Positions 10,150 through 44,282 of a stretch of 64,000 nt of DNA are shown one piece after another. The DNA is from Candidatus Woesearchaeota archaeon (GTDB taxonomy: Archaea > Nanobdellota > Nanobdellia > SCGC-AAA011-G17 > PNOQ01). A program made the translations under genes and the position numbers. The DNA is taken from NCBI GenBank assembly GCA_043812195.1, contig JBDRML010000029.1, forward strand, positions 32,001-96,000, read 5' to 3'. A model generated the notes under the pieces. The model saw only the letters and a program-made list of their open reading frames with translations, did no database searches and was not told the origin of the DNA. The first letter of the stretch is position 1. Each line of letters begins with the position of its first letter.

Positions 10150-10270
10150 CTCGCGGTAGCTCAATGGCAGAGTACTCGGCTGTAGATGCTATTCGACTAG
10201 GCGCTTAGCTTTGAATGAAAAATAGCCAGCCGATCCCGAGAGGTTGTGGGTTCAAATCCCACCCGCGAGA
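10150..10270 (+). tRNA. tRNA-Tyr(GTA) with ~49-nt intron at 37/38 (10186-10234)
   Basis: Acceptor CTCGCGG/CCGCGAG with C1-G72, anticodon GTA 10182-10184, T arm GTGGG-TTCAAAT-CCCAC; intron pairs GCTATT/AATAGC (relaxed BHB). Confidence 0.9.
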
Positions 10271-10333
10271 TATTTTTTTATCTTGCCATACACCACCAAA
10301 AATGATTTATAAATAAAAATTAATGTACAATTA

Positions 10334-10993
10334 ATGAGAATCACCAAGAAGTTAGCAGAGTTATGTGGTATCATAGTTGGAGATGGTTGTATAACTTATT
10401 ATAAAAAGAATGGTGATTATAAGGTAGAAATTTTTGGAGATTATAAAGAATTAGAATATCATAGTTACATAAAAACTCTTTTCAAAGAAATATTCAATAA
10501 AGAGCCAAAAACAAAATTGAATAAAGATGGAATTTCTCTTTGCTTACATTCAAAAGAAGTCTTAGACAAATTGATAGGATTAGGTATTCCAATAGGAAAG
10601 AAAAAAGATGTAATTAGAATTCCTCCCAAAATAATGTCAAACAAAGGATTAACAAAATGTTTTATTAGAGGATTAGCCGATACAGATTTCAGTGTTTGTT
10701 TTAAAAAAGGAGGAAGAATCAAAAACTCTTATCCTAGAATTACTGTAGAAATGCATTCTAAAAAACTGATAAAAGATATAAAACTAAGTTTGGAATCTTT
10801 AGGAATTACATGCTACTACTATGAAAGAACCAGAAATACACCTTTTGGTATATTTCAATCATATAGTTTAGATATAAATGGAAACAAAAAATTTGAAAAA
10901 TGGATGAGATTAATAGGATTTAAAAATAAAAAACATCTATCAAAAATAGAATTCTGGAAGAAAAACGGATATTATCAAAAGAATTGTTCTTAA
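10334..10993 (+). CDS. Free-standing LAGLIDADG homing endonuclease-like protein
   Basis: LAELCGIIVGDG and FIRGLADTDFSV motifs; 63 nt downstream of tRNA-Tyr. Confidence 0.85.
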   Translation: MRITKKLAELCGIIVGDGCITYYKKNGDYKVEIFGDYKELEYHSYIKTLFKEIFNKEPKTKLNKDGISLCLHSKEVLDKLIGLGIPIGKKKDVIRIPPKIMSNKGLTKCFIRGLADTDFSVCFKKGGRIKNSYPRITVEMHSKKLIKDIKLSLESLGITCYYYERTRNTPFGIFQSYSLDINGNKKFEKWMRLIGFKNKKHLSKIEFWKKNGYYQKNCS

Positions 10994-11080
10994 TTCCTGT
11001 TAAGTACGTCAAATTTAAAATCTTTCAGCAACATTTTTATTTATTCTAGAAATAATTTTTTCATTAAATCATTCAAATTT

Positions 11081-11698
11081 TTACTGTCTTAATAATTCAA
11101 TTGCCTTTTTTGCTCGCAGGTAAGAACTTCCTTCTAAATAAGAATCTCGTCCAAATAATACAATGCCTAATCTTTCCAAACTTGTTTTTCCTGCTAAATG
11201 CTTTTCAAATTCGCCAGTCATTGCTTCAACTGCTTCTTCTAGTGGAACTTGATATAATCCTGTTCCCAAAGCCGGAAATCCAATTGATGTTAATCCATGT
11301 TCTTTTCCAAGTTCCAATACATTTCTTGTACTCTCAGCAATGACATCTTTATTGCAATATAATCCAGATTCAGGATCATAATTTAAAGCAACAGAATGAA
11401 TAACATGTTTTGCAGGCAATTTTCCACCAGTTGTCAAATGGGCTGAATATAATGGTACTTTTCCTCGCATCCCATGAATATCCAATTCTCCATGTTCTTA
11501 AGCGTATCTGTCTGCAACTCTGGATGCTTCGTCAAAAATTTCAATTCCACCATCTCTTGCTACAAATCCTTGAACGCCCATACCTGCAAAATCTAAATCT
11601 GGATTCGCAGAAATAACAATTGCGTCGGCATTGTATCTTGTGATGCTTCCTTCAGCAAGTTCTATTTTTCCCTTACCTGCTCGATATTCTGTTTTCAT
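11081..11698 (-). pseudogene. Macro-domain (ADP-ribose processing) protein split by in-frame TAA at 11498-11500
   Basis: GSIT..ADAIVISAN...GMGV in 5' part and HVIHSV, IGFPALGTGLY in 3' part, same frame. Confidence 0.8.
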
Positions 11699-11803
11699 AC
11701 TATAGAGAATAAAATTAATCTTTATAAATCTTTCGGTTTTTGACTATTTCTTAGTAGTTACAAAAATCATAAAATTGCCAAATTTAAAAGCTCGCAACAA
11801 CTT

Positions 11804-12238
11804 TTATCTAATATCACCCACATTAATCAAATATTCAATATTCGGAGCAACTTTATACTTTCCAGCTTTAATCTCTTCAATATCCAACCACTTAACTTCA
11901 ACAGTTGGTGCCATAGCTTTCAAATCCTCTCTATTAGAAATCAACTTAGCCAAATAATGTATCAAAACAATAGTCATCTTCTCTTTCGTAGTAGGATTTT
12001 CCCATAAAATCATCGGATGCAATGGTTTAATTATTTCAATTTCTCCACCAACTTCTTCTTTAAACTCTCTTCTGCATGCCTCTTCCAAACTTTCAACATT
12101 TTCCTCAACAGCACCACCGGGTATTTTATAGAAATCATCCTTAGTATCTTTATTAACTAATAACTTTCCATCTTCAATAATCACAGGTCCAGAAGCAATT
12201 ATGTATTTTCCTTCCATAATACCAATAACATATAACAA
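11804..12238 (-). CDS. Nudix hydrolase
   Basis: PGGAVEENVESLEEACRREFKEEVG Nudix box; start may be the second Met. Confidence 0.85.
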   Translation of the reverse strand: MLYVIGIMEGKYIIASGPVIIEDGKLLVNKDTKDDFYKIPGGAVEENVESLEEACRREFKEEVGGEIEIIKPLHPMILWENPTTKEKMTIVLIHYLAKLISNREDLKAMAPTVEVKWLDIEEIKAGKYKVAPNIEYLINVGDIR

Positions 12239-12308
12239 TTTAAAAATCTTCGTTTTAAAACAAATCCATCCAAAAGCCTTAAAAATACAGTAACATTACC
12301 TAAAACAC

Positions 12309-13046
12309 ATGGAACATATAAAAGAAGAGGTACCCAGATTAGTTGATGAATATTCTAAAGAAGATAATAACGAATTCAGGCATGTAATACCATCAATTCT
12401 CAAAAAAGGGTTAGATAAGGTAAATTTATCAATGTTTGATGAAGAAACCAAAAAAAGACTTCTTATAGCAGTAGGAGATGAATATTTAAAAAGAGGAAGT
12501 ATAACAGAAGCATTCAATATTTTTAAACAATTAAACTACAAAGAAAAACTAGCAGAAGTAGGTGACGAACAATACAAACTAGGCCTATACAATCAAGCAA
12601 TAGAATCTTACAGATTATCAGAAAATCATTCAAAATTAAGAAATATAGGTGAAAATTTATTAAGAAATGGTCACTTAAATGAAGCAATAAAATCATTCAC
12701 AATCCTAAAAGACACAGAACAACTAAAAGAAGTAGGACAAATTTGTTTAGAAAAAAACAAATATCCACAAGCAATAGAAATTTTTAAAGCATTAGAAGAC
12801 ACCACAAAAATAATAGAGTTAGGAGAACACTGCCTAAAAGATAATCAACTAGACTTAGCACTAAGAGCATTTGAAATAATACAAGACAAAGAAAGATTAA
12901 ACAAAGTAGCAGATAAATTTTTAAAATTCGGTTCAGTATCAAAAGCAGTAAAAGCATATGAGTTAGCAGGAAATCATTCCATGATAACATTTATAAAAGA
13001 AAATTTCAGTGAAAGCACAATAAAAAGAGATAGTTCTTACATATAA
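12309..13046 (+). CDS. TPR-like alpha-helical repeat protein
   Basis: Repeated xGDxxxxxG.y..A...f units. Confidence 0.7.
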   Translation: MEHIKEEVPRLVDEYSKEDNNEFRHVIPSILKKGLDKVNLSMFDEETKKRLLIAVGDEYLKRGSITEAFNIFKQLNYKEKLAEVGDEQYKLGLYNQAIESYRLSENHSKLRNIGENLLRNGHLNEAIKSFTILKDTEQLKEVGQICLEKNKYPQAIEIFKALEDTTKIIELGEHCLKDNQLDLALRAFEIIQDKERLNKVADKFLKFGSVSKAVKAYELAGNHSMITFIKENFSESTIKRDSSYI

Positions 13047-13086
13047 TCTACAAATCTTTATATAATTCCTATAACTTCATAAATAT

Positions 13087-13920
13087 ATGAAGAAGATTCA
13101 AGAAATTTTAGGTATAGCAGTAACAAGGATAGCAAGAGAAATCGAAGCTAATATTATTGTTTCTATAGATTCTATTCCAGATATAGAATACGAAGATACT
13201 GATGATTTTCAGGTAAAGATAATAATATTCAAAAAAATAAAAGAGGAGGTCTACAGAAAAACTGAATATGTCATAAAAATAAAAAACTTAGAATATGGAT
13301 CAATTACACCAGTAAAAGAAATAATAATGGATGCAATTACAAAAGGTCACATTAATAAAGGCGATACAGTAATATGCACCCAAGACAGCAAATTAGGATT
13401 TGGCTATAAAGGAGTTATTTTTATATTTGAAATAGACGATACTTTCTTCCAAATAAGCAGACATAAATTATCTGAAAAAATAGGATCAGAAGTTATAGAA
13501 GCAACATTAAATATATCAAAAGAAATAGCACAAGAAGGCAGAGAAGGAAAAAGAGTTGGAACAGCTTTTATAATAGGAAATATATCAGAACTATCAAAAT
13601 ATATGAAACAATTAATTATTAACCCATTTCAAAACCTAGAAGAAAGACCTAAAGTTACAGACCCAAAAATGAGAGAATCAATAAAAGAGTTTGCGCAGTT
13701 AGACGGAGTGTTTATACTAGATGAAGAAGGCCATATAATAAGTGCAGGAACATATATAAATATAGATCATTCAGATATAAATTTGCCAGAGGGTTTTGGG
13801 ACAAAACATAGATCAGCTATAGCTTTAACAAGTAAAACAGATTCATTAGCTATTGTTATTTCAGAATCAGGTGGAAAAATAAGAGTCATAAAAGCAGGAA
13901 AAATTATACTTAAAATCTAA
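13087..13920 (+). CDS. dacZ: Diadenylate cyclase (DacZ-type, DisA_N domain)
   Basis: EGREGKRVGTAF, QLDGVF, GTKHRSA, ISESGG motifs. Confidence 0.85.
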   Translation: MKKIQEILGIAVTRIAREIEANIIVSIDSIPDIEYEDTDDFQVKIIIFKKIKEEVYRKTEYVIKIKNLEYGSITPVKEIIMDAITKGHINKGDTVICTQDSKLGFGYKGVIFIFEIDDTFFQISRHKLSEKIGSEVIEATLNISKEIAQEGREGKRVGTAFIIGNISELSKYMKQLIINPFQNLEERPKVTDPKMRESIKEFAQLDGVFILDEEGHIISAGTYINIDHSDINLPEGFGTKHRSAIALTSKTDSLAIVISESGGKIRVIKAGKIILKI

Positions 13921-14077
13921 ATATAACGTCTTATTTAAATACTCATCGTCTTAAAAACAAAAGCTTTATATATTACCTCTTTTCCCAGAATATATTACAA
14001 AGCAAAGGTACCTCTCTACAATGTCCAACCATGATTACTAAAAGTCATATTTACTAACGACCTAGAGAGTGCTATGT

Positions 14078-14180
14078 GCCCTGATGGTGTAGTTGGCTAT
14101 CATACGGCCCTGTCGAGGCCGTGACCCGGGTTCAAATTTCCCATAGCCTAAAAAAAGGATTGAAAGTCCCGGTCAGGGCG
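14078..14180 (+). tRNA. tRNA-Asp(GTC) with 30-nt T-loop intron at 59/60 (14137-14166)
   Basis: Acceptor GCCCTGA/TCAGGGC, anticodon arm CGGCC-CTGTCGA-GGCCG; T arm restored by removing the insert; TTCA/TGAA central helix with AAT and AGT bulges. Confidence 0.9.
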
Positions 14181-14197
14181 TATCTTTGCAAAAAGAT

Positions 14198-14923
14198 GGA
14201 CTGGTAGCTCAGCTTGGTAGAGCACTTGAGGAGATAAGCAAAAATGAAAGTACAAATTCCAAATGAACCAACAATCAATTTAGCAGAAGAGTTCGGAATA
14301 CATATTGGTGATGGGAGTATGAACTTTTATAAAGAAAAGGGATTGGTATCTATAGCAATAAATCCAAACGAAAAAAAATATATGGATTTCATTAAAAGAC
14401 TTTATTGGAGTCTATATAAAGTAAGTGTTAACTTAAGAAATTGGAGTAGGGCATATGGATTTCAACTAAGCTCTAACGAATTGGTTGAATTCAAATATAA
14501 ACAAGGTCTCCCATTAGGAAAAAAGGAAAATATAAATATTCCTCATTGGATAAAGAAAAACGAACAATATCAAAAAGCATGTCTAAGAGGAATATTTGAC
14601 ACAGATGGTACACTGTATATTGAAAAAAAGTACAATAAACCCTATCCAAGAATACAAATTTCGAGTATATCTCAAAATTTAATTAAAGATATACATGAAA
14701 TATTAGTCAATTTGGATTTTAAAGTTAGTCTATGGAAAGAAAATTTTAGAAATAAGAACTGGAAAACAAGACATGTAATTGCCTTAAGAGGATATAAACA
14801 AGTTCAAAAATGGATGGATGAAATAGGCACTAATAATCCCAAAAATTTAGAAAAATATAATAAGCTTATCTTCAGGTGAAGCTTTTAACCAAGGGGTCGC
14901 GGGTTCAAATCCCGTCCGGTCCA
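14198..14923 (+). tRNA. tRNA-Lys(TTT) split by a 652-nt protein-coding intron at 30/31 (14229-14880)
   Basis: 5' exon GGACTGG...GAGCACTTG, 3' exon GCTTTTAACCAAG...CCGGTCCA; joined stem CTTGG/CCAAG; intron ends pair GGAGATAAGC/GCTTATCTTC. Confidence 0.9.
14244..14879 (+). CDS. tRNA-intron-encoded LAGLIDADG endonuclease
   Basis: LAEEFGIHIGDGSM and CLRGIFDTDGTL motifs; lies wholly inside the tRNA-Lys intron; GAGGAG upstream. Confidence 0.88.
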   Translation: MKVQIPNEPTINLAEEFGIHIGDGSMNFYKEKGLVSIAINPNEKKYMDFIKRLYWSLYKVSVNLRNWSRAYGFQLSSNELVEFKYKQGLPLGKKENINIPHWIKKNEQYQKACLRGIFDTDGTLYIEKKYNKPYPRIQISSISQNLIKDIHEILVNLDFKVSLWKENFRNKNWKTRHVIALRGYKQVQKWMDEIGTNNPKNLEKYNKLIFR

Positions 14924-14944
14924 CTTTTAAATTACGAGAAAAAA

Positions 14945-15184
14945 ATGGAAGAATTTGACATAAAAAAACATAGCTTAGCCACAGTACATACAAAGCTAAC
15001 AGAGGAAGAAAAACAAGAGCTTCTTAAAAAATTCAACATCACAATAGATCAATTACCAATGATTCAAAAAAAAGATCCTGCTATTCAACATTTAGAACCA
15101 AGAATCGGAGATATCATTAAAGTCATAAGAGATACTCCAACTAATAAAGATAGTCCATTCTTTAGGGTTATTGTACATGGTTAA
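14945..15184 (+). CDS. rpoH: RNA polymerase subunit H (Rpo5)
   Basis: HSLATVHTKL, QLPMI...DPAI, GDIIKVIR; true start ATG 14945 (the track's 14876 start lies in the tRNA locus). Confidence 0.92.
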   Translation: MEEFDIKKHSLATVHTKLTEEEKQELLKKFNITIDQLPMIQKKDPAIQHLEPRIGDIIKVIRDTPTNKDSPFFRVIVHG

Positions 15185-16664
15185 AAATTACAAAAAAATT
15201 ATAGGGAACTATTTCAAAGAACATTCTTTTATAGAGCATGATATAGATTCATTCAATTTATTCTTAGAAAAAAACTTACAAAGTGTTATAGATGAAGTAA
15301 AAGAAATTGTACCAACTATAATTCCACAAGAATATGAAAACTTTAAAATTAAATTAAGTAGAATTAGAGTAGAGAAACCAGAAATTGTAGACGCAGATGG
15401 ATCTAAAAGAGCAATATATCCTACAGAAGCAAGATTAAGAAAGTTAACATATTCAGCTCCAGTATATCTAGAAATAAGTGCATATATAAATGATATTCAA
15501 AGGGATTCTTTCACAACACAAATAGGAAAGCTACCAATAATGTTAAAATCAAAATTCTGTCATTTATATGGTTTAAATAAAGAAGAACTAATAAAACACG
15601 GAGAAGATCCTGATGACCCTGGTGGATATTTTATACTAAACGGAAATGAAAGAGTTTTAGTAACAATTGAAGACTTAGCATCAAACAAAATATTTGTATC
15701 ACCAGCAGCAACAGGACCAAGTAAATTTGTAGGTAAAATGTATTCTGAAAAAGAAAATTACAGAATTCCACACACACTAGAACACACTAAAGATGGAATA
15801 TATTACTTAAGTTTTGCAAGATTCAAACGTGTGCCTGCTATTGCAATAATCAAGGCACTTGGTCTTTTAAAAGACCAAGAAATTATGCAATCTATTTCTC
15901 CTGACAAAATTTACGATGATGTTCTAATAAACCTTTACAATTCTATTGAGCTAAAAACAAAAGAAGAAGCATTAGAATTTTTAGCCAAAAAAATAGGTCT
16001 AACACAAAAGGATTTGAGAGAAGAAAAAACAATGGAACAATTAGATAGATACTTACTTCCTCATTTAGGAACTACACCAAAAGACAGAACATTAAAAGCC
16101 CATAATCTATGTAAATTCATAAGAAAATTCATACTAGTTTCTCAAGAAGGAATAAAACTTCCACCAAAAGATCATTACATGAATAAAAGACTTAAATTAA
16201 GTGGAGATTTATTATCAGATTTATTCAGGGTAAATATTAGATCGTTAATTCAAGATATATTATACAATTTCCAGAGACTTGTTAAGAGAGGAAAATTTAC
16301 ATCAATAAGAACAGTCATAAGAGAACAACTTCTAACTTCAAGAATTAAAAGTGCTATGGCAACAGGAACATGGCCAGGTGGTAGATCAGGAGTAAGTCAA
16401 AATATGGCAAGAACCAACTCAATAGATACAATGTCTAATTTACAAAGAATTGTTAGTTTATTAACATCCAGTCAAGAAAATTTTGAAGCTAGAGCATTAC
16501 ATGCAACACATTGGGGAAGGTTGTGTCCAGTTGAAACTCCAGAAGGTACTCCAATTGGACTAAGAAAGAACTTATCTTTAATGGCAACTATAACAAAAGT
16601 AGATTCAAGTGAAGAAAAAATAAAAAAAAGTATGGAAAACATAGGTCTAACCATAATAAAATGA
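15177..16664 (+). CDS. rpoB2: RNA polymerase subunit B'' (Rpo2N)
   Basis: PTEARLRKLTYSAP, DPGGYFILNGNERV, HWGRLCPVETPEG. Confidence 0.95.
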   Translation: MVKNYKKIIGNYFKEHSFIEHDIDSFNLFLEKNLQSVIDEVKEIVPTIIPQEYENFKIKLSRIRVEKPEIVDADGSKRAIYPTEARLRKLTYSAPVYLEISAYINDIQRDSFTTQIGKLPIMLKSKFCHLYGLNKEELIKHGEDPDDPGGYFILNGNERVLVTIEDLASNKIFVSPAATGPSKFVGKMYSEKENYRIPHTLEHTKDGIYYLSFARFKRVPAIAIIKALGLLKDQEIMQSISPDKIYDDVLINLYNSIELKTKEEALEFLAKKIGLTQKDLREEKTMEQLDRYLLPHLGTTPKDRTLKAHNLCKFIRKFILVSQEGIKLPPKDHYMNKRLKLSGDLLSDLFRVNIRSLIQDILYNFQRLVKRGKFTSIRTVIREQLLTSRIKSAMATGTWPGGRSGVSQNMARTNSIDTMSNLQRIVSLLTSSQENFEARALHATHWGRLCPVETPEGTPIGLRKNLSLMATITKVDSSEEKIKKSMENIGLTIIK

Positions 16665-18460: not shown

Positions 18461-18463
18461 AAA

Positions 18464-29324: not shown

Positions 29325-32300
29325 ATGGCAGAAAAATCAGTAGAACAAATAAAAAAAGTAATGAATAACCCAAGCCATATAAGAAACATCGCTATCGCAG
29401 CCCATATCGATTTTTTTTGAGATAAATTCTCAAAAGACGAGTGCATGGGAAATGCATAGCACCAGATTCAAGGCTCATTCTAAGAGATGGAACTATGTTA
29501 ACTGCTAAAAAATTATTTAACTTAGCAGAGAAAAAAGGAACAAAATTTGAAGAAACGAAAGACCATATAATTTATGATACTAACTCATTAAATTTAGAAG
29601 CATTTTCCCTAAACAAAACTAATGGAAAATTAGAAAAAAAACCAATACAACTAGCCTGGAAATTAAAAGGTGGGGACTTAATAAATATTAAATTAAGAAA
29701 CAATTTCAACATTTCCACAACACCAGAACACAAATATTTAGTCTTAGAAAATTTAGAGTTTACAGAAAAAGAAGCTAAAGATATAAAATTAGGAGATAGA
29801 ATAATCTGCCCAAGAAAGCTTGAAACTAATTCAAATATTAACATAAAACGCACAATTCTACTAAAATTAGCTGAAAAAAGATTTTACGTTAAAGTAAACA
29901 AAATCTTAGGAGAAAAAATAAAAAAATTCGTTCTGAAAGAAAAAGAAACAATAAAAAAAATAAACAAAGAAATAAAGTATAAATCATTTTATCATGGTTC
30001 ATGGCAAAATAGATATTTATTAAAAGACTTAATAGAAATTTCAAGTTTAATAAATATAAACTTGGAGTATTTGTATAACAATATAGAAACAATAATTTAT
30101 AGAAGCGGAGCTCAAAGAGGAAAAAGCTCGCTGCCAACAAAATTACCACAAAACTTTCAAAACTTTTATTATCTAGCAGGATTGTTTGTAGGAGATGGAC
30201 ATCATAAAAAATTCATAGTCGGAAAAAATGAGTTAAAATCTAAATTTGTAGAAATTTGCAATGAATTAGGAATAAATGTAACATATAGAAATTATGAATA
30301 CAGAACAGAAGAAATAGTAACAAACGCTACCTTATTAGAAATATTAAACTCATTATTTGATTATCCAAAAGTCAAAAAAAGCCATAATGTAAAAATATCA
30401 GAATTTCTTCTACTATCTCCAAAAAAATATTCTTCAAAATTCTTAAGAGGATACTTCGATACTGATGGATGTGTAGAAAAAAGCAGAAGAGCAGTAACAA
30501 TATCGTCTGCCAGTGATAAAATGATAGCAGATTTAAGTATGTTTTTATTAAGATTCGGTTGCATACCAATCATAGAAAAAGACAACACAATAACAATTAG
30601 TGGACAATCCATGATAAATTTTATAGCAGAAATAGGATTTGAAATTAAAGCAAAAATAGCCAAAGCAAACTCCATAAAACAAACAATAATCGGAAGCATG
30701 GTTTCAGATGTTATACCAGTAACACATAGTAACGGAATGATTTCACTACAAAAAAACTTCACCAATTCAGAAAAATTAATTAATTTTTGTGAAAAAAATG
30801 ATATCAGCATAGAAAATATAAGTAAAATATTAAGTAAAGATATCTCATACATAGAAGTAAAAGCTATAGAAACAAAAAATGAAGAATTTGTATATGACTT
30901 CACAGTAAAAGACAACCATAACTTTGCTGCAGAAGGTATGATTATTCATAATACCACATTTTCAGACAATCTTTTAGCAGGTGCAGGCATGATTTCTAAA
31001 GAACTAGCAGGTAAACAATTAGCCTTAGATTTTCACGAAGATGAGGCAACAAGAGGTATTACAATAGATTCAGCTAGCGTATCTATGCTTCACACAGTAA
31101 AGGGAGAAGATTACTTAATCAATTTAATAGACACACCAGGTCACGTAGATTTTGGTGGAGATGTTACTAGGGCTATGAGAGCAGTTGACGGTGCAATTGT
31201 ATTAGTAGATGCAGTTGAAGGAATAATGCCTCAAACAGAAACAGTTCTAAAACAAGCTCTAAGAGAAATGGTAAAACCAGTTCTTTTCATAAATAAAGTT
31301 GACCGTTTAATCAAAGAAGTTAAACTAACACCACAAGCAATGCAAGAAAGATTCATTAAAATTATATCAGACGCTAATGGGTTCATTGAAACTTTTGCAC
31401 CAGACGAATTCAAAAAGAAATGGCAATCAAACGTACAAGACGGAAGCGTAGCTTTTGGTTCAGCATTTCATAATTGGGCATTAAGTTTCCCATACATGCA
31501 AGAAAAAGGAATAAGCTTCAAAGATATTATAGATGCTTATGAAAAAGAAGATTGGAAAATTTTAGCAAAGAAAGCACCATTACATGAGGTTGTTTTGGGT
31601 ATGATAATTAAACACCACGTAAATCCAATCACAGCACAAGCATACAGAATTCCAAAAATATGGAAAGGAGATTTAGATACAGAAATAGGAAAATCTTTAT
31701 TAAATTGTGATCCAAAAGGACCTGTAGCATTTATAGTAACAAAAATAGTAATAGATAAACATGCAGGAGAAGTATCTGCAGGAAGATTATTCTCAGGAAC
31801 ATTAAAACAAGGTGATGAAGTTTGGCTTAACATGGGTAAAAAGAAAGTTAGGTTACAACAGGTATCAATTTACAAAGGCGCACAAAGAACTGCTTTTAAT
31901 GAAATTCCAGCAGGAAACATAGCAGGTTTAGTAGGATTAAAAGATACATTCGCAGGTGAAACTATATCTTCAGAACCAATGGAACCTTTCGAAGCAATTA
32001 AACATATCTTTGAACCTGTAATCACAAAATCCATAGAAGCTAAAAAAGCATCAGACTTAGCAAAATTAATTGATGTTTTAAAACAAGTTGGAAAAGAAGA
32101 TCCAAGTATCAAAATAGAAATCAATGAAGAAACTGGAGAAAATTTGATGCATGGTATGGGAGAATTACATTTAGAGATTATAGAAAACAGAATTAAATCT
32201 GAAAAAGGTTTAGATGTAACAACTTCAGAACCAATCGTTGTTTACAGAGAAACAGTTTCAAAAGTAAGTGCAGAAAAAGAAGGTAAAAGTCCAAATAAGC

Positions 32301-33022
32301 ATAATAAATTCTATATGGTTGTAGAACCTCTAGAAGATAGTGTGTATGATGCAATAAAAGCAGGAGATTTACCAGAAGGTAGAATAAAGAAAAAAGATAC
32401 AGAAACTATTCAAAAATTAGTGAAATTAGGATATGATGCCAAAGAAGCTAAAAATGTAAGACAAATTTACAAAGGAAACATGCTAATTGACAACACAAGA
32501 GGTATTGTTCATATCGGAGAAGTTATAGAAATGATTATGGATGCTTATCAACAAGTTATAGACGCAGGTCCTATTTGTAGAGAACCTTGTGGAAAACTAA
32601 AAGTAAGAATTATGGATATGAGACTACACGAAGATGCAATTCATAGAGGTCCAGCACAAGTTTATCCTGCTATCAGAGAATCAATAAAAGAAGCAATGGC
32701 AGATGCTAAATCTCACTTACTAGAACCTATTCAAATTGTACAAATAGAAAGTCCAGCAGAATATTTAGGAGAACTATCAGCATTAGTTCAAAATAAAAGA
32801 GGACAACTATTAAATGTAGATCAAGAAGGTGAACACATTACTGTAAAAGCAAAATTACCAGTAGCAGAAATGTTCGGCCTAGCATCAGATTTAAGATCAA
32901 CAACATCCGGAAGAGGAGTATACTTCATAGTAGATCAAATGTATGAGAAATTACCAGAAACTCTACAAGAAAAAATCAGAAAACAAATAAGATCAAGAAA
33001 AGGTTTAAGTGAAAACGCTTAA
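29325..33022 (+). CDS. fusA: Elongation factor 2, join(29325..29411,29444..33022), with putative mRNA intron and an intein; ~721 aa after both are removed
   Basis: IRNIAIAAHID + HGK[intein]TTFSD, RGITI, DTPGHVDF, NKVD, GMGELHLE, diphthamide loop HEDAIHRG. Confidence 0.93.
29412..29443 (+). other. 32-nt BHB intron in EF-2 mRNA (putative)
   Basis: CCCAT-ATCG-AT^T-TTTTTTGAGA-TAAAT-TCTCAAAAGA-CGAG-TG^C-ATGGG; removal restores the AHIDHGK P-loop; insert contains in-frame TGA. Confidence 0.82.
29453..30952 (+). mobile_element. Intein (500 aa) with LAGLIDADG homing endonuclease, inserted in the EF-2 P-loop
   Basis: Starts CIAPDS, TTPEHKY block B, YLAGLFVGDG and FLRGYFDTDG, ends VYDFTV..HNF...IIHN followed by Thr. 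Confidence 0.95.
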
Positions 33023-34828: not shown

Positions 34829-34830
34829 AT

Positions 34831-35499: not shown

Positions 35500-35541
35500 T
35501 ATTCTTTAAATTTAAAAATAAAAGATTATAAACATATCTGT

Positions 35542-37031: not shown

Positions 37032-37096
37032 AATATAAAAGCTTAAAAAGAACAAATATCCTATAATATCATATCAAACTTAAAAAGGAGGCAAAA

Positions 37097-37597: not shown

Positions 37598-38351
37598 AAT
37601 AAAAAAGTCTTTCAAACCTTTCTTAAAATTTGGTTCAGCAATAAAATTAATTTATTTATATGGATCTGTAACTAAAAAATACAAACCAACTTCTGACATA
37701 GACATACTCATAGTTATAGATAACACAAAACAGCTAAAAGAATCCAAAATAAAAAACATAGAAAAAACAGCAGCTAAGATTACAAAAGATTTTAAAAAAA
37801 TGGGAATGGATCTACACATTCAACCATTAAAGCCATTAAGCTTATGGTGGAAAATTTTAATCGATGGTGAACCCTGGATGATAACATCTATTAAAAATAG
37901 TATAGTAATCCAAGATAAAGATAATTTAATGAAAGAAATAAAACAATTCATTAAGAAAAAAACAGTTTATAGCAGAGAAGAAAGAGCAGAAAAGTTATTA
38001 GAAAGAGCAGAAAAATTTCATTCTGAAAACAGAGATTTATTATTAGACACAATTTCATTATTGTCCAACGCAGCCACAGAATCAGCACAGATCTTGTTAT
38101 TATTCGATAATAAAATAATTTTCAATAAAGAAAAAATACTAGAATCACTAAAAAAGAAATATTCTAAAGAAATCAATTTAGGAACATATCAAGAAATAAT
38201 AGATTTAGAAAAAAAAGCCAGAAAAGGAACGCTAACAGAATTTTCAGGAAAAAATTTATCTTATTACACAAACAAAGTTCAAAATTTCATAGAACAAATA
38301 GAAATTCTAACTTTAAAAATATCAGAGGAATATATTAAGAATGAAAAATAA
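37542..38351 (+). CDS. Nucleotidyltransferase (MNT) plus HEPN-like domain protein
   Basis: LYGSV...SDIDILIVID; helical C-terminal domain. Confidence 0.75.
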   Translation: MRGSKVQEIKEKLKRLHNKIKKSFKPFLKFGSAIKLIYLYGSVTKKYKPTSDIDILIVIDNTKQLKESKIKNIEKTAAKITKDFKKMGMDLHIQPLKPLSLWWKILIDGEPWMITSIKNSIVIQDKDNLMKEIKQFIKKKTVYSREERAEKLLERAEKFHSENRDLLLDTISLLSNAATESAQILLLFDNKIIFNKEKILESLKKKYSKEINLGTYQEIIDLEKKARKGTLTEFSGKNLSYYTNKVQNFIEQIEILTLKISEEYIKNEK

Positions 38352-39021
38352 TATATTAAACATAAAAAAAGAATTAATCAAAAATATAAAAGAAATAAAA
38401 TCCATATGGATTATTAATGAAGATATATACATTCTAATCCCTGATAGCATAAAAAAAGAAAAAAAAGAAATAATTCAAAAAATTAAAAAAATAACAAAAG
38501 ATATTAAAATTAATGTTTTAGAAATTGATGAATTATTTAGGGAAATAACAGATTATAATAAAAAATTACTAATTGATATTAGAGATGGCGATCTATTATA
38601 TGATAAGTTAGGATTTATTAAATCAATCAAAATAAATATCAGAGAAGGAAATATAGTGGGCACAAAAGAATCTCTTTTTAGAAAATTTGTAAATATTGAA
38701 AAAAATTTAAAAGAAATAGAGCAAATAAAACGCGAGATAATATCAAATTTATATACATCTGCAATAGAAGCCTCACAAGCCATGATGCTAGCTTCAGGAC
38801 TTGATATAACAACACAAAAAAAAGTCCCAATTAGATTAAAAAAATTGTACAAAAGAGAGATAATTGATAAAGAGAGTTTAAATTTAATTAAAGAAATAAT
38901 AAAAGCTTACAAAAACTTTGAATATATAAAATCAAAAATTCCAAGCCCGGAAATATTAGACAATTATATTAAAAAAATGGACAACTTTTTAATAAAAACA
39001 AGAAATGCAATATATAAATAA
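38341..39021 (+). CDS. Degenerate nucleotidyltransferase/HEPN-like paralogue
   Basis: IRDGDLLYDKLGF, LYTSAIEASQAMML resemble the upstream gene. Confidence 0.6.
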   Translation: MKNNILNIKKELIKNIKEIKSIWIINEDIYILIPDSIKKEKKEIIQKIKKITKDIKINVLEIDELFREITDYNKKLLIDIRDGDLLYDKLGFIKSIKINIREGNIVGTKESLFRKFVNIEKNLKEIEQIKREIISNLYTSAIEASQAMMLASGLDITTQKKVPIRLKKLYKREIIDKESLNLIKEIIKAYKNFEYIKSKIPSPEILDNYIKKMDNFLIKTRNAIYK

Positions 39022-39022
39022 A

Positions 39023-39520
39023 TTAATTAACTTCCCTTTTCTCAGGTTTAACATATTCCAATCCAAGAGCCTTAAAAACTCCCTCTTCAGTTTTGCCAGC
39101 TATTTTTTTACCTGTTTTTCTATTAAAAACCCCATATTCATTTAATTTTAAGCCTTTTCTAATCGCCTTTATTCTTAAAACAATATCATATTCTTTGCTC
39201 CCAGTAAAGTATTGTAAAGCAGCACCATAACTAGAATCATCAACAACTCTTAAATCAACATTTATTCCTTTTTTTAGTTTAACAGAAGATCTAGTAGAAC
39301 CCTTAGACACAACACTTCCAACTTCAGACATATTAACAAATTTTTCAATAACCAATTCATGATTTTTAGCTGAAACTAATATATCTATATCTTTAACCAT
39401 TTCTTTTTTTCTTCTAATAGAACCAGCTATTTCAACTCTGACAACACCTTTGATTTTTTTTAATTTATTTTTAATTTTATTAGCAATAGGCAATAATTCA
39501 CTTCTAGGATATTTTTTCAT
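39023..39520 (-). CDS. polX: Minimal family X DNA polymerase (palm+thumb only)
   Basis: AGSIRR, KDIDILV, VDLRV, YFTGSK, LNEYG motifs in 165 aa. Confidence 0.85.
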   Translation of the reverse strand: MKKYPRSELLPIANKIKNKLKKIKGVVRVEIAGSIRRKKEMVKDIDILVSAKNHELVIEKFVNMSEVGSVVSKGSTRSSVKLKKGINVDLRVVDDSSYGAALQYFTGSKEYDIVLRIKAIRKGLKLNEYGVFNRKTGKKIAGKTEEGVFKALGLEYVKPEKREVN

Positions 39521-39542
39521 ATTAAACTTTTAGAAATACTAA

Positions 39543-39965
39543 TTAAAAAAGTTTTCCTTGTATATATTTTGGAATATTATCAAATTTTTTTCTATCTCTA
39601 ATATAATCCGCTTCATTATACTCAGTAGAAGCTAACGTAAATAATAAACAATCATCAGAATAGTTATACATTTTATGCCATATCATCGGTTTAACAATCA
39701 AAATATTGTCTCCCCTTAAACTTACTTCAACTTTTTCATATCCATTATTTAATTCTATATCGCAGCTTCCTCTAGCACAAAATAATGCCTGAATTGGTTC
39801 TTCAGGATGAACATGATCTCCTCTCTTTATTAAAAGGCTTGTAGCGCCAGCCCAAAAAATTCTCTCAATTTTAAAAGGCAAATCAGAATTCTGAATAACA
39901 GACAAATCACCTCTTTGATCCTTAACTTGTTTAATTTTCAATAATTTATATTCTAACATCTGCAA
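39543..39965 (-). CDS. FdtA/QdtA/WxcM-like sugar 3,4-ketoisomerase (cupin)
   Basis: DQRGDLSV, PFKIERIF, RGDHVH, IWHKM, YNEADYIRD. Confidence 0.85.
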   Translation of the reverse strand: MQMLEYKLLKIKQVKDQRGDLSVIQNSDLPFKIERIFWAGATSLLIKRGDHVHPEEPIQALFCARGSCDIELNNGYEKVEVSLRGDNILIVKPMIWHKMYNYSDDCLLFTLASTEYNEADYIRDRKKFDNIPKYIQGKLF

Positions 39966-40009
39966 AAGAAAGCATCAAAGAATCATTTATATAAGCTCCT
40001 ATTTCACAG

Positions 40010-41461
40010 TTATTCTGATAATAAAAACTCATTTAAATCTTTTTTGACCTTTTTCCCAAAATCTGTTAAATTCCCTTTTCCATCAAGTATATCGAATTTA
40101 TTCAATTGTCCTATCAACCAATTGGAAGTTTTCTTATTTTTACCCAATAGGTATCTTGCACAACCTGTATTTCCTAGCCTCTCTTTCAAAATCCTTCTTC
40201 TTTTTGGATAATATTTGAATATTTTATCTTTCAAAATTGAGATATTTTTTATTAATTCTAATGACCAAAATCTTATATACCCTTTATTTAAACCCTCCAT
40301 ATAAACTTTATAATTAAATCCTGTTATCTTTACGATTTCTTCTAATATTTTTAATTCTTTAGCATTAGAGGTAATGATAATATGCCCATGCGATTTAGAA
40401 CTTACTGAACCATCCCCTTCCAAAACACCAAATATAAAATCCATTGCTAAACTTTTATCATTATTTACTTTAATTTCTTTCAATAATCGATTTAATAATT
40501 TATTATAATAAATTTGAACTAATTGTTTATGTTCTTTTAAAATTAAAGATCCAAAAGGATTTATTGCTGGAGAAGATCCTTTATCTGAAAAATTAAGTCT
40601 AACTCTCTTTTGTTCTATATGAAAAGGTGTATTTTTCTCCCATGCATTAATCAAATAGTTTTTAATAGATTTCTCATCTCTATACTCAATTTCAGTAAAA
40701 GAGATACTTGGAATTATTTTAGAATTAAACACCAAAGAAGTATGCATTTTTAAATAATAATTGGCTTGTTCAAATGTTGAAGCACAAATCCCCCAATCAT
40801 TTCCCCTTTTAGTCCCATCTGCAAAATAACAACCTAAATAATTAGCGAAATCTTTCAACATAATATCCAATTTTATAATTATAGGCATCCTATTTCCTAA
40901 AAAAATTATTCCATATTCATCATCTACTTTTGCAAAATTAAAATCACCAAACATTGCATTATTTTCATTTGAAGTTCTATTTAATTTTCTAATTATTTTA
41001 AATATGCCCTTTTTTCTTGATTTCTTTGAATCAAAAACACAAGTATATTCTTCTCTCCTTTTTCTTTTTGAACTATTTATTTTACAAAATTTAGTTATGT
41101 TATTTCCATCTATAATTGACTTAATCTCTACAATATCCCCTGCTTCAAACAAGTACCTCGATGCAATATAATCAGGAATATACAACCTACCATCCGAACT
41201 TATTGTTGTATAAAACCCATCAACTTTTTTTATTTTGATATTAATCTTTTTACCCAATAAACTACCATCTTTCATAATTCTACAAGGAACATAAAATCCC
41301 AAAGTACCATAGAACTTAACTTTGGAAAAAAAGCTAATTTTAGAATTTAAAATTAGTTCAACACAATCGTTTAAGGAGAAAGCATCTCTACTTCCCAATG
41401 GAATAGAAATAAAACCCACCCCCTTATTATTTCCCTTTTTCAAAATAGCTTGAAATTCCAT
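40010..41461 (-). CDS. LAGLIDADG-domain protein with N-terminal AbrB-like repeats
   Basis: YLGCYFADGT and FIFGVLEGDGSV; N-terminal TISSDGRLYIP...GDIVEIK pattern. Confidence 0.7.
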   Translation of the reverse strand: MEFQAILKKGNNKGVGFISIPLGSRDAFSLNDCVELILNSKISFFSKVKFYGTLGFYVPCRIMKDGSLLGKKINIKIKKVDGFYTTISSDGRLYIPDYIASRYLFEAGDIVEIKSIIDGNNITKFCKINSSKRKRREEYTCVFDSKKSRKKGIFKIIRKLNRTSNENNAMFGDFNFAKVDDEYGIIFLGNRMPIIIKLDIMLKDFANYLGCYFADGTKRGNDWGICASTFEQANYYLKMHTSLVFNSKIIPSISFTEIEYRDEKSIKNYLINAWEKNTPFHIEQKRVRLNFSDKGSSPAINPFGSLILKEHKQLVQIYYNKLLNRLLKEIKVNNDKSLAMDFIFGVLEGDGSVSSKSHGHIIITSNAKELKILEEIVKITGFNYKVYMEGLNKGYIRFWSLELIKNISILKDKIFKYYPKRRRILKERLGNTGCARYLLGKNKKTSNWLIGQLNKFDILDGKGNLTDFGKKVKKDLNEFLLSE

Positions 41462-41526
41462 ATTTTATCTTAAATAATTAAATATTTAAAGATTTGTATA
41501 GTATAGAAAATAAAAAGATTCTGCGG

Positions 41527-43356
41527 TTACTCCACAGAAACACATTTCGCTAAATTTTTAGGATGATCAATTTCGCAACCTCTTAATTTTGCCATGTGAT
41601 AAGCTAATAATTGTGTAGGAATAACAGAAAGTATAGGTGTTAAATATTCACTAGTACTAGGAATATAAATCACATCATCAACTCTTTTCATCAATTCATC
41701 ATTTAAATCAGTAGTAATTGCTATTACTTTCCCACCACGACTTTTAATCTCCTCTATATTGTTTAAAACTTTCTTATACAATCTATCTAAGGGAGCAATA
41801 AAAATACTTGGCATATTTTCATCAATCAAGGCGATAGGTCCATGTTTCATCTCTGCAGCAGGATATCCTTCAGCATGAATATAACTAATCTCTTTTAACT
41901 TTAAAGCACCTTCCAAAGCTACAGGAAAATTATACCCCCTACCTAAATACAAAGCATTATTTGATTTATAATATTTATCAGCAACAGATTTAATCTTATC
42001 ATTACTTCTCAAAACATCATCAATCAAAGAAGGCAACCTAACTAATTCATTAATAAGCTCTTTAGCTTTTTCATCTGAAATCTTCTCTCTAATTCTTCCA
42101 AAATACAAAGCCAACAAATATAATATAATACAATGAGATGTAAATGTTTTAGTAGAAGCCACACCTATTTCCTGACCAGCATATAAATATACCCCTCCAT
42201 GAACCTTTCTAGCAATTGTAGAAGAAACAGTATTAACAATACCTAAAGTCTTAACTTCATATTTTTTAGCTTCATCAATAGCAGCTATAGTATCAGCAGT
42301 TTCTCCACTCTGAGATAATGCAATCAATAAATCCCCTTTCTTTAAAGCCGGATTTCTATATCTAAATTCAGATGCATACTCAACCTGACAAGGAATATCA
42401 ACCAAATCCTCAAATAAATATTTACCATACAAACATGCATGCCATGAAGTTCCACACCCAGTTAAAATAATTCTTTTTATATCTTTTATTTCATTATCAT
42501 CTAAATTCAAACCACTAAACTTGGCATTAATTTTATCCTTATCTATTCTCCAACTAAAAGCCTCACTAACAGTTCTTGGCTGCTCAAAAATTTCCTTAAG
42601 CATATAATGTTCAAAATTACCTTTACTTATCTCATCTAAATCCATTTTTAATTTAGTAACTTCTCTATTAATATGCAACTCAGACAAATTCTGTATACTA
42701 TAATCATTCTTCTTAATTATTGCCACATCATTATCATGCAAATAAATTACATCTTTAGTATAAGGCAACACAGGAGCAACATCAGAAGCAACAATCATTT
42801 CATTATTTCCAATTCCAATTACTAAAGAACTACTTTTCTTAGCAATAAATAATCTATCTGGTATATCAGAATGTAACATCACAAAAGCATAAGCCCCTTC
42901 CAATAATTTTAAAGATTTAATAAACGCATCCTCAATATTATTATTTTTCATAAACTCCTCAACTAAATGAGCCATAACCTCAGTATCTGTTTCACTATCA
43001 AACTTATGCCCTTTTTCTTCTAATAGATTTCTAAGTTCCAAAACATTCTCTATTATTCCATTATGCACTATAGAAATTTTCTTACTGCAATCTGAAAGTG
43101 GGTGAGCATTGAAATCAGTAACAATACTTGAAGTAGCCCACCTTGTATGGCCAATCCCAATACAAGAGTCAGGCAAATTGCCAATATTATCTTCTAAAAC
43201 TTGTATTCTTCCAACATTTTTCTTAGTATGAATTATATCATCTTTCAAAACAGAAATCCCACAAGAATCATAACCCCTATATTCTAATTTATTTAAACCA
43301 CTAATAATAACATCTTTAGCTTCTTTTTCCCCAATATATCCAACTATTCCACACAA
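41527..43356 (-). CDS. glmS: Glutamine-fructose-6-phosphate aminotransferase
   Basis: TTG start directly before CGIVG; LEYRGYDS, GHTRWAT, SQSGETADT, EMKHGP, NLAKCVSVE. Confidence 0.95.
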   Translation of the reverse strand: MCGIVGYIGEKEAKDVIISGLNKLEYRGYDSCGISVLKDDIIHTKKNVGRIQVLEDNIGNLPDSCIGIGHTRWATSSIVTDFNAHPLSDCSKKISIVHNGIIENVLELRNLLEEKGHKFDSETDTEVMAHLVEEFMKNNNIEDAFIKSLKLLEGAYAFVMLHSDIPDRLFIAKKSSSLVIGIGNNEMIVASDVAPVLPYTKDVIYLHDNDVAIIKKNDYSIQNLSELHINREVTKLKMDLDEISKGNFEHYMLKEIFEQPRTVSEAFSWRIDKDKINAKFSGLNLDDNEIKDIKRIILTGCGTSWHACLYGKYLFEDLVDIPCQVEYASEFRYRNPALKKGDLLIALSQSGETADTIAAIDEAKKYEVKTLGIVNTVSSTIARKVHGGVYLYAGQEIGVASTKTFTSHCIILYLLALYFGRIREKISDEKAKELINELVRLPSLIDDVLRSNDKIKSVADKYYKSNNALYLGRGYNFPVALEGALKLKEISYIHAEGYPAAEMKHGPIALIDENMPSIFIAPLDRLYKKVLNNIEEIKSRGGKVIAITTDLNDELMKRVDDVIYIPSTSEYLTPILSVIPTQLLAYHMAKLRGCEIDHPKNLAKCVSVE

Positions 43357-43471
43357 TGTAATATACGCCAAAATACTGCTCTTATAAATTTAATGAAAGT
43401 AACATTTAGATTAAGTAAGCTTGCCATACACCACAAAATCATTTATAAAGTTAAAAATCAATGCATCAAAC

Positions 43472-44179
43472 ATGAATCTATCAGAAAGAGGAAAAAGGAA
43501 TGTAAGAATAAGATGGAATAGAATACATCAAAAAGAGATTGATTATATAAGGAAAAATTTAGATAAAACTTTTAATTTTAAATCTAGGTTATGTGGTTAC
43601 TTAGCAGGAGATGGCAATATTCTTACTGCTAATAGCAAAACATGTACTCATTATACAATTCGTTTTTTCCCAGATCATTATTCACTAATTAAACCATTTA
43701 AAGAAGCGTTTATCAAAACATATAATAAAAATCCAAAAGTGAAAAAATTAAAAAACTATTATTTTATAACTATTGATTCCAAACCAATAGTATATGATCT
43801 CTTGTCACTAGTTGAATTTGGTACTTCAAATTGGAGTATTCCAAATAAAATTTTAACCAATGATAAAAATAAAATAGAATGGTTAAGAGCATTTTTTGAT
43901 GCTGAAGCACATATTCATGAAAAATATATTAGAATTCAATCAGTTAATGGAAAAGGATTAAAACAAGTAAAAGAATTATTAAACCAATTTTCTATTAATT
44001 CCAAAATTTATGAATACGTTCCAAAAAATAAAAAATGGAATAAGGTGTACATACTAAATATTTTAAGGAAAAAAGATAAAATAAATTATTTAAAATTAAT
44101 AGGATTTAATCACACCATAAAGCTTAAAAAGTTAAATAAAAATCTTGATTTTGCCTTAAATAAAGCCGCGGTCGCGTAA
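43472..44179 (+). CDS. Free-standing LAGLIDADG endonuclease-like protein; 3' end overlaps tRNA-Ser
   Basis: LCGYLAGDG and WLRAFFDAEA motifs; likely ATG 43472 after TATA; stop lies in the tRNA D-arm. Confidence 0.82.
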   Translation: MNLSERGKRNVRIRWNRIHQKEIDYIRKNLDKTFNFKSRLCGYLAGDGNILTANSKTCTHYTIRFFPDHYSLIKPFKEAFIKTYNKNPKVKKLKNYYFITIDSKPIVYDLLSLVEFGTSNWSIPNKILTNDKNKIEWLRAFFDAEAHIHEKYIRIQSVNGKGLKQVKELLNQFSINSKIYEYVPKNKKWNKVYILNILRKKDKINYLKLIGFNHTIKLKKLNKNLDFALNKAAVA

Positions 44180-44282
44180 TCTGGTATCGCACAGATCCTT
44201 AAAAGAAATAAAATTTTTATGGAGTGTAAGCCTGGAAAGCCTGACCCTTTTGGGTGTCTGGGTTCAAATCCCAGTCGCGGCG
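44165..44282 (+). tRNA. tRNA-Ser(GGA) with 35-nt intron at 29/30 (44195-44229)
   Basis: Acceptor GCCGCGG/TCGCGGC, joined stem CAGGC/GCCTG, long variable arm ACCC-TTTT-GGGT; BHB GCAC/GTGT with AGA and AAG bulges. Confidence 0.9.

Follow-up and report, generated by a model that had tools for sequence, protein, structure and literature searches.

Short bulge–helix–bulge introns beside LAGLIDADG nuclease genes in tRNA and essential protein genes of a woesearchaeal genome: candidate composite homing elements

Archaeal rRNA introns of the bulge–helix–bulge (BHB) type encode LAGLIDADG nucleases (I-DmoI, I-Tsp061I and relatives) and, to our knowledge, no insertion mechanism is established for BHB introns that lack an open reading frame (ORF). 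In phages, collaborative or trans homing has been described for F-CphI and the psbA intron of cyanophage S-PM2 and for MobE and the nrdB intron of T4 (PMC2790892). The cbf5 pre-mRNA of Crenarchaeota contains a BHB intron of 16–44 nt and, according to that paper, no other archaeal mRNA had confirmed splicing at that time (PMC2738675). Non-canonical tRNA introns are reported from ARMAN/DPANN archaea and Thermoproteales, together with a broad-specificity EndA (PMC5829648, PMC3488258, PMC12397907). Here, we describe a window of 64,000 nucleotides from a Candidatus Woesearchaeota assembly (G000: 938 kb, 45 contigs, AT-rich, archaeal; the window is G000:C29:32001–96000, and coordinates are window positions unless a contig, C, is named), in which BHB introns of four tRNA genes and of the EF-2 gene lie close to LAGLIDADG genes.

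The best reading of these sequences is that the window holds four instances of a composite selfish element that would be distributed clade-wide in Woesearchaeota-type DPANN archaea. An earlier note on this DNA had paired the introns with nuclease genes at four places, and all four pairings hold, with distances of 63 nt (tRNA-Tyr), 17 nt (tRNA-Asp and tRNA-Lys) and 9 nt (EF-2) and an overlap of 15 nt (tRNA-Ser). The anatomy of the loci, the BHB geometry with restoration of the frame and covariation, the locus-specific nuclease lineages and the co-occurrence of introns and nucleases across genomes are direct observations. With a confidence a little above even, we regard such composite homing elements as an archaeal BHB analogue of phage collaborative homing.

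The association is tightest at kae1. On contig C6 of G000 the codons for STAH|TFG are split by a 17-nt insert, with a LAGLIDADG ORF directly upstream, and the insert forms a perfect BHB motif with a 12-bp exon–exon helix and the central helix CUGC/GCAG. In a survey of 30 genomes the intron is present in six (G000, G001, G007, G012, G006 and G030), which are exactly those with an orthologous upstream ORF of about 410 aa combining a helix–turn–helix (HTH) region with LAGLIDADG motifs. The kae1 motif is uninterrupted in the other 24 genomes, and the upstream nuclease was found in none of them (in one, the upstream region is off the contig); here and below, a nuclease is called absent when nothing within about 1.5 kb matches the profiles used. 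The BHB is perfect in every intron-bearing genome, its central helix covaries (CUGC/GCAG, CAGC/GCUG and CCGC/GCGG) and predicted splicing gives STAH-TF in all six. The nuclease ORFs of G001, G006, G007, G012 and G030 are fused in frame to exon 1 and stop within the intron; the copy of G000 itself is pseudogene-like, with two stops, and its intron is retained. Over the whole order (240 genomes), the kae1 nuclease has matches in 14 genomes with E no higher than 1e-20; ten of the 14 are clear orthologues with 45% identity or more (G000 copy included). All ten nuclease loci with visible downstream DNA (nine of the ten order-wide orthologues and one further public record) have an intron of 13–18 nt, across several families.

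EF-2 combines an mRNA intron with an intein in the window itself. Exon 1 (29325–29411, + strand) comprises 29 codons and ends in ...AHID; the frame stops after GAT (29411) and picks up at CAT 29444. In the predicted BHB mini-intron of 32 nt in between (29412..29443, +), the outer helix is CCCAU/AUGGG, the central helix has three pairs plus A·G, the inner helix has 10 bp and the 3-nt bulges are AU|U and UG|C, a structure on which the minimum free energy fold and a geometric BHB scan agree. Cuts after the second bulge base, as predicted, would excise exactly 29412–29443 and restore AHID|HGK. Nine nucleotides (CAT GGG AAA) separate this intron from the Cys codon at 29453, which opens a 500-aa intein with a LAGLIDADG domain inserted after HGK (29453–30952, +; PF14890 at 5.8e-28 and PF14528 at 9.8e-15). 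The intein begins with its N-terminal Cys (CIAPDS...) and closes with ...IIHN followed by TTFSDN (HN + Thr), and the C-extein (30953–33022, +) carries the Pfam EF-G domains. The homologous intron of G006 has a perfect central helix, the A·G of G000 being A–U there, and the inner helices of the two genomes are entirely different. The BHB is likewise perfect in G221 and G194, compared with three of four pairs in G000.

Among the 28 genomes in which the EF-2 N-terminus is readable, G000 and G006 have the intron after GAT together with a LAGLIDADG intein, G026 has the same intron with a short intein, and G023 and G021 have a short intein without the intron. In G007 and G003 the intron lies after CAT, there is no intein, and an orthologous free-standing nuclease sits directly 5′ of the gene; 19 of the 28 have neither intron, intein nor nuclease. 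The order-wide search returned this upstream nuclease in eight genomes at 39% identity or more, always directly 5′ of EF-2, and seven of the eight have an EF-2 intron of 31–35 nt. Five of these seven, newly found in that search, have the intron at the same site as in the window, without an intein. In all, there are 11 EF-2 introns of 31–35 nt at three positions within 13 nt, at an intein insertion hotspot, and nine of them adjoin a LAGLIDADG gene (seven a free-standing upstream gene, two a LAGLIDADG-bearing intein). The introns at the three positions are independent of one another. A duplicate of the EF-2 N-terminus at the start of the upstream nucleases, as in the build of fungal mobile ORFs, was looked for and discarded: there is none, and an HTH-like region is found instead. 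Among the matches listed for DNA contigs of other runs, no joint falls at the intron or the intein of EF-2.

The third interrupted protein gene is that for aIF2-gamma on contig C17. A 30-nt insert interrupts its P-loop codons (GH|VDHGKTT); the BHB has UUGG/CCAA as its central helix, with ACA and AGA as bulges, and excision of the 30 nt would give GHVDHGK. A LAGLIDADG-like ORF of 427 aa lies directly 5′, and its frame continues across exon 1 as far as a TAG within the insert. The intron is shared with G023 at the same site, with inner hairpins that differ in a compensating manner. Altogether, five LAGLIDADG-like ORFs of 280–427 aa with HTH-like N-termini adjoin protein genes in G000. The mRNA mini-introns fall about 10–29 codons (30–90 nt) into the gene, right behind the nuclease gene, and no ORF-bearing intron is seen at kae1, EF-2 or aIF2-gamma in any genome examined, the nuclease always lying outside the intron.

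Further LAGLIDADG genes were noticed beside other protein genes. A 383-aa LAGLIDADG ORF (G000:C1:24543–25694, −) is convergent with topA and shares about 18 nt with the 3′ end of that gene, a placement that departs from the 5′-flank pattern. In other genomes of the order, HTH-LAGLIDADG paralogues are also located directly 5′ of apparent pheT (PheRS beta) and gatE genes (L227 in G024:C2, L229 in G052:C5 and L230 in G159:C6), and no interruption was found in the first 50–60 codons at these three loci.

The tRNA genes were searched with Rfam, ARAGORN, our own acceptor/T-arm finder and reading by eye. ARAGORN at default settings detects none of the tRNAs of the window; with introns allowed it recovers them but misplaces the non-canonical introns. 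Rfam picks up tRNA-Tyr and tRNA-Ser, while tRNA-Asp and tRNA-Lys(UUU) were read from the sequence and were also recovered by intron-permitting ARAGORN and the acceptor/T-arm finder. The tRNA-Tyr(GUA) gene (10150–10270, +; Rfam tRNA 58.2 bits, and ARAGORN with introns allowed) has a 49-nt intron at or near the canonical position (10186–10234, +; ARAGORN and our parser), whose BHB is imperfect, with three of four central pairs by hand. A free-standing double-motif LAGLIDADG ORF of 219 aa begins 63 nt 3′ of this tRNA (10334..10993, +; PF14528 at 4.7e-9, PF03161 at 6.1e-6, alignment A1); it has its own TATA-like element, and an orthologue is found 3′ of tRNA-Tyr in G009. On a small contig, G000 has another tRNA-Tyr(GUA)-like gene with a 106-nt intron (C18:337–515, +), which may be a second copy or contamination.

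The tRNA-Asp(GUC) gene (14078–14180, +) was read from the sequence, as was its T-loop intron of 30 nt at position 59/60 (14137–14166, +), which a BHB scan also gives, with a central helix UUCA/UGAA and an outer helix of 5 bp. A T-loop insert resembling it occurs in another tRNA of G000 (C45:36150–36235, −). At 17 nt beyond tRNA-Asp, the tRNA-Lys(UUU) gene (14198–14923, +) has a BHB intron of 652 nt at position 30/31 (14229–14880, +; from the parser, with the central helix CACU/GGUG by hand), and inside this intron lies a LAGLIDADG ORF of 211 aa (14244–14879, +; PF14528 at 1.3e-9, alignment A1). We considered a group I intron here and rejected it: no Rfam intron family matches, and the BHB geometry fits instead. 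Indeed, no Rfam intron family scores at its gathering score in the window, nor at E up to 10 over 9000–46000, and no intron, ribozyme or C/D-box family of Rfam matched the inserts. The tRNA-Ser(GGA) gene (44165–44282, +; Rfam 34.7 bits) has a 35-nt intron at position 29/30 (44195–44229, +; placed by hand and with the help of intron-less orthologues of 83 nt). Its BHB is of the relaxed type, with the central helix GCAC/GUGU by hand and the outer helix absent. The free-standing LAGLIDADG ORF 43421–44179 (+; likely start ATG 43472, PF14528 at 8e-15) covers the promoter region of this tRNA and overlaps its first 15 nt, and its orthologues sit 5′ of tRNA-Ser in G018 and G022. The strict BHB motif (two 3-nt bulges and a 4-bp helix) is found in tRNA-Asp, tRNA-Lys and the tRNA-Ser(GCU) of the same genome, and removal of the tRNA introns at the predicted cuts leaves intact cloverleaves that match intron-less orthologues. 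Elsewhere in the window, 58317–58423 (−) matches Rfam RT-16 RNA (RF03019) with 51.3 bits against a gathering score of 50.

The same neighbourhood recurs throughout G000. PF14528 has 26 matches in this genome at E up to 0.01, about nine of them in long frames (inteins). The small LAGLIDADG ORFs number eight open ones (211–367 aa), found by PF14528, and one broken one, found with the A1 profile, which was made from alignment A1 of the G000 LAGLIDADG paralogues. All nine are within 100 nt of a tRNA gene, compared with a mean of 0.29 of nine for random placement, and they are usually directly 5′ on the same strand, running into the tRNA promoter region or the first bases. We compiled 35 tRNA loci in G000, 23 of them with introns: 12 of 12 nuclease-adjacent tRNAs have introns, versus 11 of the 23 others (Fisher p = 0.0016). 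The association is therefore real, yet it does not extend to every intron. A free-standing nuclease accompanies an ORF-less intron at tRNA-Tyr, tRNA-Ser(GGA), tRNA-Ser(GCU), tRNA-Cys, tRNA-Glu, aIF2-gamma and kae1 of this genome. Two further tRNAs of G000 have unusual outlines. The first three acceptor-strand bases of an intron-bearing tRNA-Pro(UGG) (C25:371–470, −; L003) are not contiguous, so that the gene may have a further intron at 3/4 or be damaged; a LAGLIDADG ORF (C25:567–1364) lies 97 nt upstream of it. A 124-nt tRNA with at least two inserts (C29:99457–99580 in contig coordinates, +; L001) is overlapped by 39 nt by an upstream LAGLIDADG ORF.

Among the relatives, 27 of 31 genomes from the family and order have a match to the A1 profile. 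From these, the best 40 free-standing loci, with 41 ORFs, were taken to assess adjacency to tRNAs, and 35 of the 41 ORFs have a tRNA within 200 nt. Since our cloverleaf parser copes with simple cases and misreads tRNAs with a long variable arm or two introns, introns of the relatives were classed by gene length alone: 22 of these 35 tRNAs are at least 95 nt long, four are ambiguous at 83–90 nt and nine, at 76 nt or less, are intron-less. Thus 22 of the 31 unambiguous nuclease-adjacent tRNAs are at least 95 nt long, against a background of about 26% clearly intron-bearing genes among the non-adjacent tRNAs of three near-complete relatives (binomial p ~2e-7, a value inflated by kinship). At three of the nine intron-less adjacent tRNAs the nuclease copy has internal stops. 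Moreover, the clusters that the nucleases form at 38% identity or more correspond to the kind of tRNA next to them (Glu, Ser-GGA, Ser-UGA, Ser-GCU, Tyr-downstream and Tyr-upstream), and across genera each nuclease lineage keeps to a single host gene. We also asked whether the nuclease ORFs are preceded by a second copy of the tRNA 5′ end, such as a scar or a target duplication would leave; the long matches to the acceptor stem, some 1.2 kb away, were due to chance, and the idea was dropped. Nor was a former gene start seen as a scar at any of the loci studied.

Locus by locus, the tRNA introns behave differently across the relatives. That of tRNA-Tyr is present in 23 of 23 relatives, with 47–53 nt and 72–83% identity over the intron-containing stretch (L180–L202), a conservation that suggests a function of its own; in G006, the tRNA-Tyr has a nuclease upstream and an extra D-arm insert. 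For tRNA-Ser(GGA/UGA), all four nuclease-adjacent copies have the 29/30 intron, intron-less orthologues of 83–84 nt are found in nine relatives, and the co-occurrence holds in one direction only. The same 29/30 intron as in tRNA-Ser(GGA) is present in the tRNA-Ser(UGA) of G000 (C16:62538–63310, −; L084/L117), directly 5′ of which is a LAGLIDADG pseudogene with three stops, intact in its G018 orthologue. At tRNA-Ser(GCU), the nuclease ORF terminates within the 8/9 intron of the tRNA. Nuclease-adjacent copies of tRNA-Glu are 108, 99 and 139 nt long; the tRNA-Glu of G003, beside a nuclease with two stops, has 75 nt, as do putative tRNA-Glu genes of several relatives with no listed nuclease nearby. 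The T-loop intron of tRNA-Asp is found in none of the ten relatives seen, nine of which are intron-less while G022 has an intron in the anticodon loop. The tRNA-Lys(UUU) gene is intron-less in three relatives. Moreover, in contigs of other runs of groundwater DNA, 14230 is connected to 14875 with eight other letters (the shorter side of the joint is supported by 30 nt in two runs and 18 nt in a third). The intron there has 16 nt and the same BHB core at position 30/31, compared with 652 nt in G000. This short intron very likely comes from the tRNA-Lys of other organisms, and from its position the ORF-bearing intron of G000 would be a mini-intron with an ORF in its loop, or the reverse. In relatives that lack the nuclease, tRNA-Glu, tRNA-Lys and most tRNA-Asp genes have no intron; many other introns persist without a nuclease.

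The nucleases themselves are diverse. The eight paralogues are 18–25% identical, both LAGLIDADG motifs keep their acidic residues, and G59, D64, G65 and D160 are invariant in the alignment. The nearest solved relatives of the profile are PI-PfuI (1dq3; 3.4e-23), V-ATPase inteins, 2dch (2.8e-7) and I-DmoI (4.4e-7). In the window, the three free-standing or intronic LAGLIDADG ORFs and the intein match PF14528 (LAGLIDADG_3) above its cut-off, and from these sequence features the ORFs are predicted to encode monomeric double-motif LAGLIDADG homing endonucleases. Eight LAGLIDADG ORFs are preceded by a 23-nt motif in which two half-repeats follow each other directly oriented (GGTCGACAAG GTYGACAACCACC) and behind which, after about 9 nt, comes a TTTATAAA box (e.g. 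C26:3660–3682, C29:98693–98715 and C29:110291–110313, with weaker forms at 10283–10294 and 43421–43432 of the window). It is also found before radA (which has two inteins), a metallophosphoesterase gene and two further genes with no useful NCBIfam name. We do not retain it as a tRNA promoter, as ordinary tRNA promoters are without it and it precedes radA and others; it may be a shared regulatory site. For the predicted splicing, G000 has one gene with an EndA catalytic domain (C3:1706–1966; a 182-aa frame) and an RtcB gene.

From these features we infer splicing, cleavage specificity, immunity and co-conversion, which together would make up the following element. Its first part would be the gene of a monomeric double-motif LAGLIDADG nuclease with its own promoter, placed immediately beside a highly conserved gene, mostly in the 5′ flank and on the same strand, at times within an intron or intein. 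The host genes would be tRNAs and, in G000 or its relatives, EF-2, aIF2-gamma and kae1, perhaps also leuS and gatE. The second part would be a BHB intron of 13–35 nt that splits the most conserved stretch of the host gene, that is separated from the nuclease gene by 10 to about 100 nt, and that the tRNA-splicing endonuclease and RtcB ligase of the host would excise from the RNA. The nuclease would cleave the uninterrupted allele at or near the insertion site of the intron and spare the intron-bearing allele, and repair off the donor would then copy the nuclease gene, the short first exon and the intron as one. Later, the nuclease ORF would decay or be lost, leaving orphan mini-introns, or else it would move into the intron, as in tRNA-Lys. 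Such a composite element fits the early position of the mRNA introns, the three EF-2 positions, the patchy distribution across families, and the existence both of introns without a nuclease and of nucleases that have decayed; at tRNA-Ser(UGA) on C16 and at kae1 of G000, for example, the intron is retained beside a nuclease pseudogene. That two-part homing elements of DPANN archaea, with the mini-intron at the cleavage site, are actively invading tRNA and essential protein genes is a tentative proposal, to which we give slightly less than even chances.

Several observations weigh against this proposal. The earlier statement that every BHB intron adjoins a nuclease is true within the window and does not survive genome-wide, since 11 of the 23 intron-bearing tRNAs of G000 have no LAGLIDADG gene nearby. 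Similarly, the co-occurrence that the earlier note expected across relatives at each locus is seen at kae1 (6/6 versus 0/24) and EF-2 (7/8) and is not seen at tRNA-Tyr (intron in 23/23 relatives, nuclease in 3/23): there, the nuclease is present in only four of 24 genomes (G000 and three relatives) and the intron in all, so the intron is old and independent of the nuclease and the pairing in the window is coincidental. Without a nuclease, eight tRNA-Ser(GGA/UGA) genes have the 29/30 intron and nine do not, and at least five open nuclease ORFs adjoin intron-less tRNAs (L013, L017, L018, L031 and L040). Among the protein genes, G012 has the EF-2-upstream nuclease and no EF-2 intron, G030 has an EF-2 intron (inside a Lys codon) with no nuclease seen, as does G026, and in G023 the aIF2-gamma intron is without a nuclease and S6e lies upstream. 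The EF-2 allele of G012 has an Ala-to-Ser codon change, which may make it resistant. The leuS and gatE (gatE/B) genes of G000 have upstream LAGLIDADG-like ORFs and no interruption in their first ~45 codons. In addition, the genomes compared are related and thus non-independent, so the p-values overstate the support, and an intein or an upstream insertion could shield its own allele alone, for which an intron is not logically required.

Part of this pattern would be expected if homing nucleases and BHB introns gather on the same genes independently of each other, with a nuclease that does not cut at the intron site and an intron that confers no immunity. The nucleases would favour conserved genes as good targets, and the introns would be there through a broad-specificity splicing enzyme, as protection from integrating elements or as functional intron RNAs. 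The abundance of introns in G000 (23 of 35 tRNA loci), the universal and sequence-conserved tRNA-Tyr intron, whatever the nuclease, and the loci discordant in both directions all agree with such an accumulation. We nevertheless consider it unlikely, as it leaves unexplained the perfect co-occurrence at kae1 (six genomes with both, 24 in which neither was found, and 10/10 more widely), the 7/8 at EF-2, the crowding of three separate EF-2 introns into 13 nt at the intein site and the location of the mRNA introns 30–90 nt from the 5′ end, behind the nuclease gene. The two forms of the tRNA-Lys intron, ORF-bearing here and of 16 nt elsewhere at the same site, bring up another history, in which the mini-introns are relics that arose by deletion from ORF-bearing BHB introns like that of tRNA-Lys, and the free-standing nucleases form a separate population at the same sites. 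Nuclease pseudogenes beside retained introns are compatible with it, and deletion derivatives of ORF-bearing rRNA introns are reported in Aeropyrum (PMC2738675). This history appears distinctly unlikely to us because no ORF-bearing intron occurs at kae1, EF-2 or aIF2-gamma in the genomes examined, where the nuclease precedes exon 1 and, in several genomes, continues into it in frame, and the perfect co-occurrence with an intact upstream nuclease favours a working pair. The in-frame fusions could in turn mean that the intron is an expression device, which supplies the stop for a nuclease ORF fused to exon 1 and ties host translation to splicing, selection acting on gene expression rather than on immunity of the target site. 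Indeed, the aIF2-gamma nuclease ORF stops at a TAG inside the intron, the kae1 nuclease ORFs of G001, G006, G007, G012 and G030 stop inside theirs, and that of tRNA-Ser(GCU) stops within the 8/9 intron. But the EF-2, Tyr and G000 kae1 nucleases have their own stop before the host gene, tRNA introns cannot serve host translation and introns beside inteins are left unexplained, which makes this last explanation very improbable.

A pairing with a nuclease would provide a concrete, testable mechanism for the gain of archaeal BHB introns and for their arrival at unusual tRNA positions and in protein genes. If the composite-element reading is true, collaborative homing, described for group I introns of phages, also applies to protein-spliced introns of archaea, BHB introns have a route to non-canonical tRNA positions and into mRNAs, and these loci are a living archaeal counterpart of the proposed pathway of mobile intron formation. 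EF-2, aIF2-gamma and kae1 would then be the first set of several spliced archaeal mRNAs outside cbf5. There is also a practical side: inserts of 13–35 nt break ORF calls in universal marker genes and hide DPANN tRNAs from standard finders, which affects DPANN annotation and completeness estimates. In a literature search covering few subscription journals and no supplements, we came across no account of LAGLIDADG genes next to tRNA genes of DPANN archaea, nor of BHB introns in the mRNAs of EF-2, aIF2-gamma and kae1.

The tRNA introns described here share with those of ARMAN/DPANN archaea and Thermoproteales the 59/60, D-arm and anticodon-stem positions and the relaxed BHB motifs; within the searches made, those reports, unlike the present analysis, draw no link from intron positions to neighbouring nuclease genes. 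As in cbf5, a short BHB intron resides in a protein-coding mRNA and must be removed for the frame to be kept; unlike cbf5, the genes are EF-2, aIF2-gamma and kae1, the lineage is DPANN, a homing nuclease gene is adjacent, the distribution is patchy and EF-2 has several insertion positions. The nuclease family and the intron type are the same as in the archaeal rRNA introns, and the tRNA-Lys intron is of exactly that build; its host is a tRNA, however, and at most loci here the ORF is outside the intron, in the flank of the gene. Finally, the loci resemble phage collaborative homing in that a free-standing nuclease gene adjoins a conserved gene with an ORF-less intron near the presumed target, in the joint inheritance that is expected of the two and in the route that has been proposed for nuclease genes into introns. 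They differ from it in that the introns here are protein-spliced BHB introns of 13–35 nt, whereas the phage introns are self-splicing group I ribozymes, and in that the nucleases, whose cleavage is predicted, are of the LAGLIDADG family, whereas those of the phages are HNH or EndoVII-like. The hosts here are cellular archaeal genomes, and the targets would be tRNAs and three or more essential protein genes.

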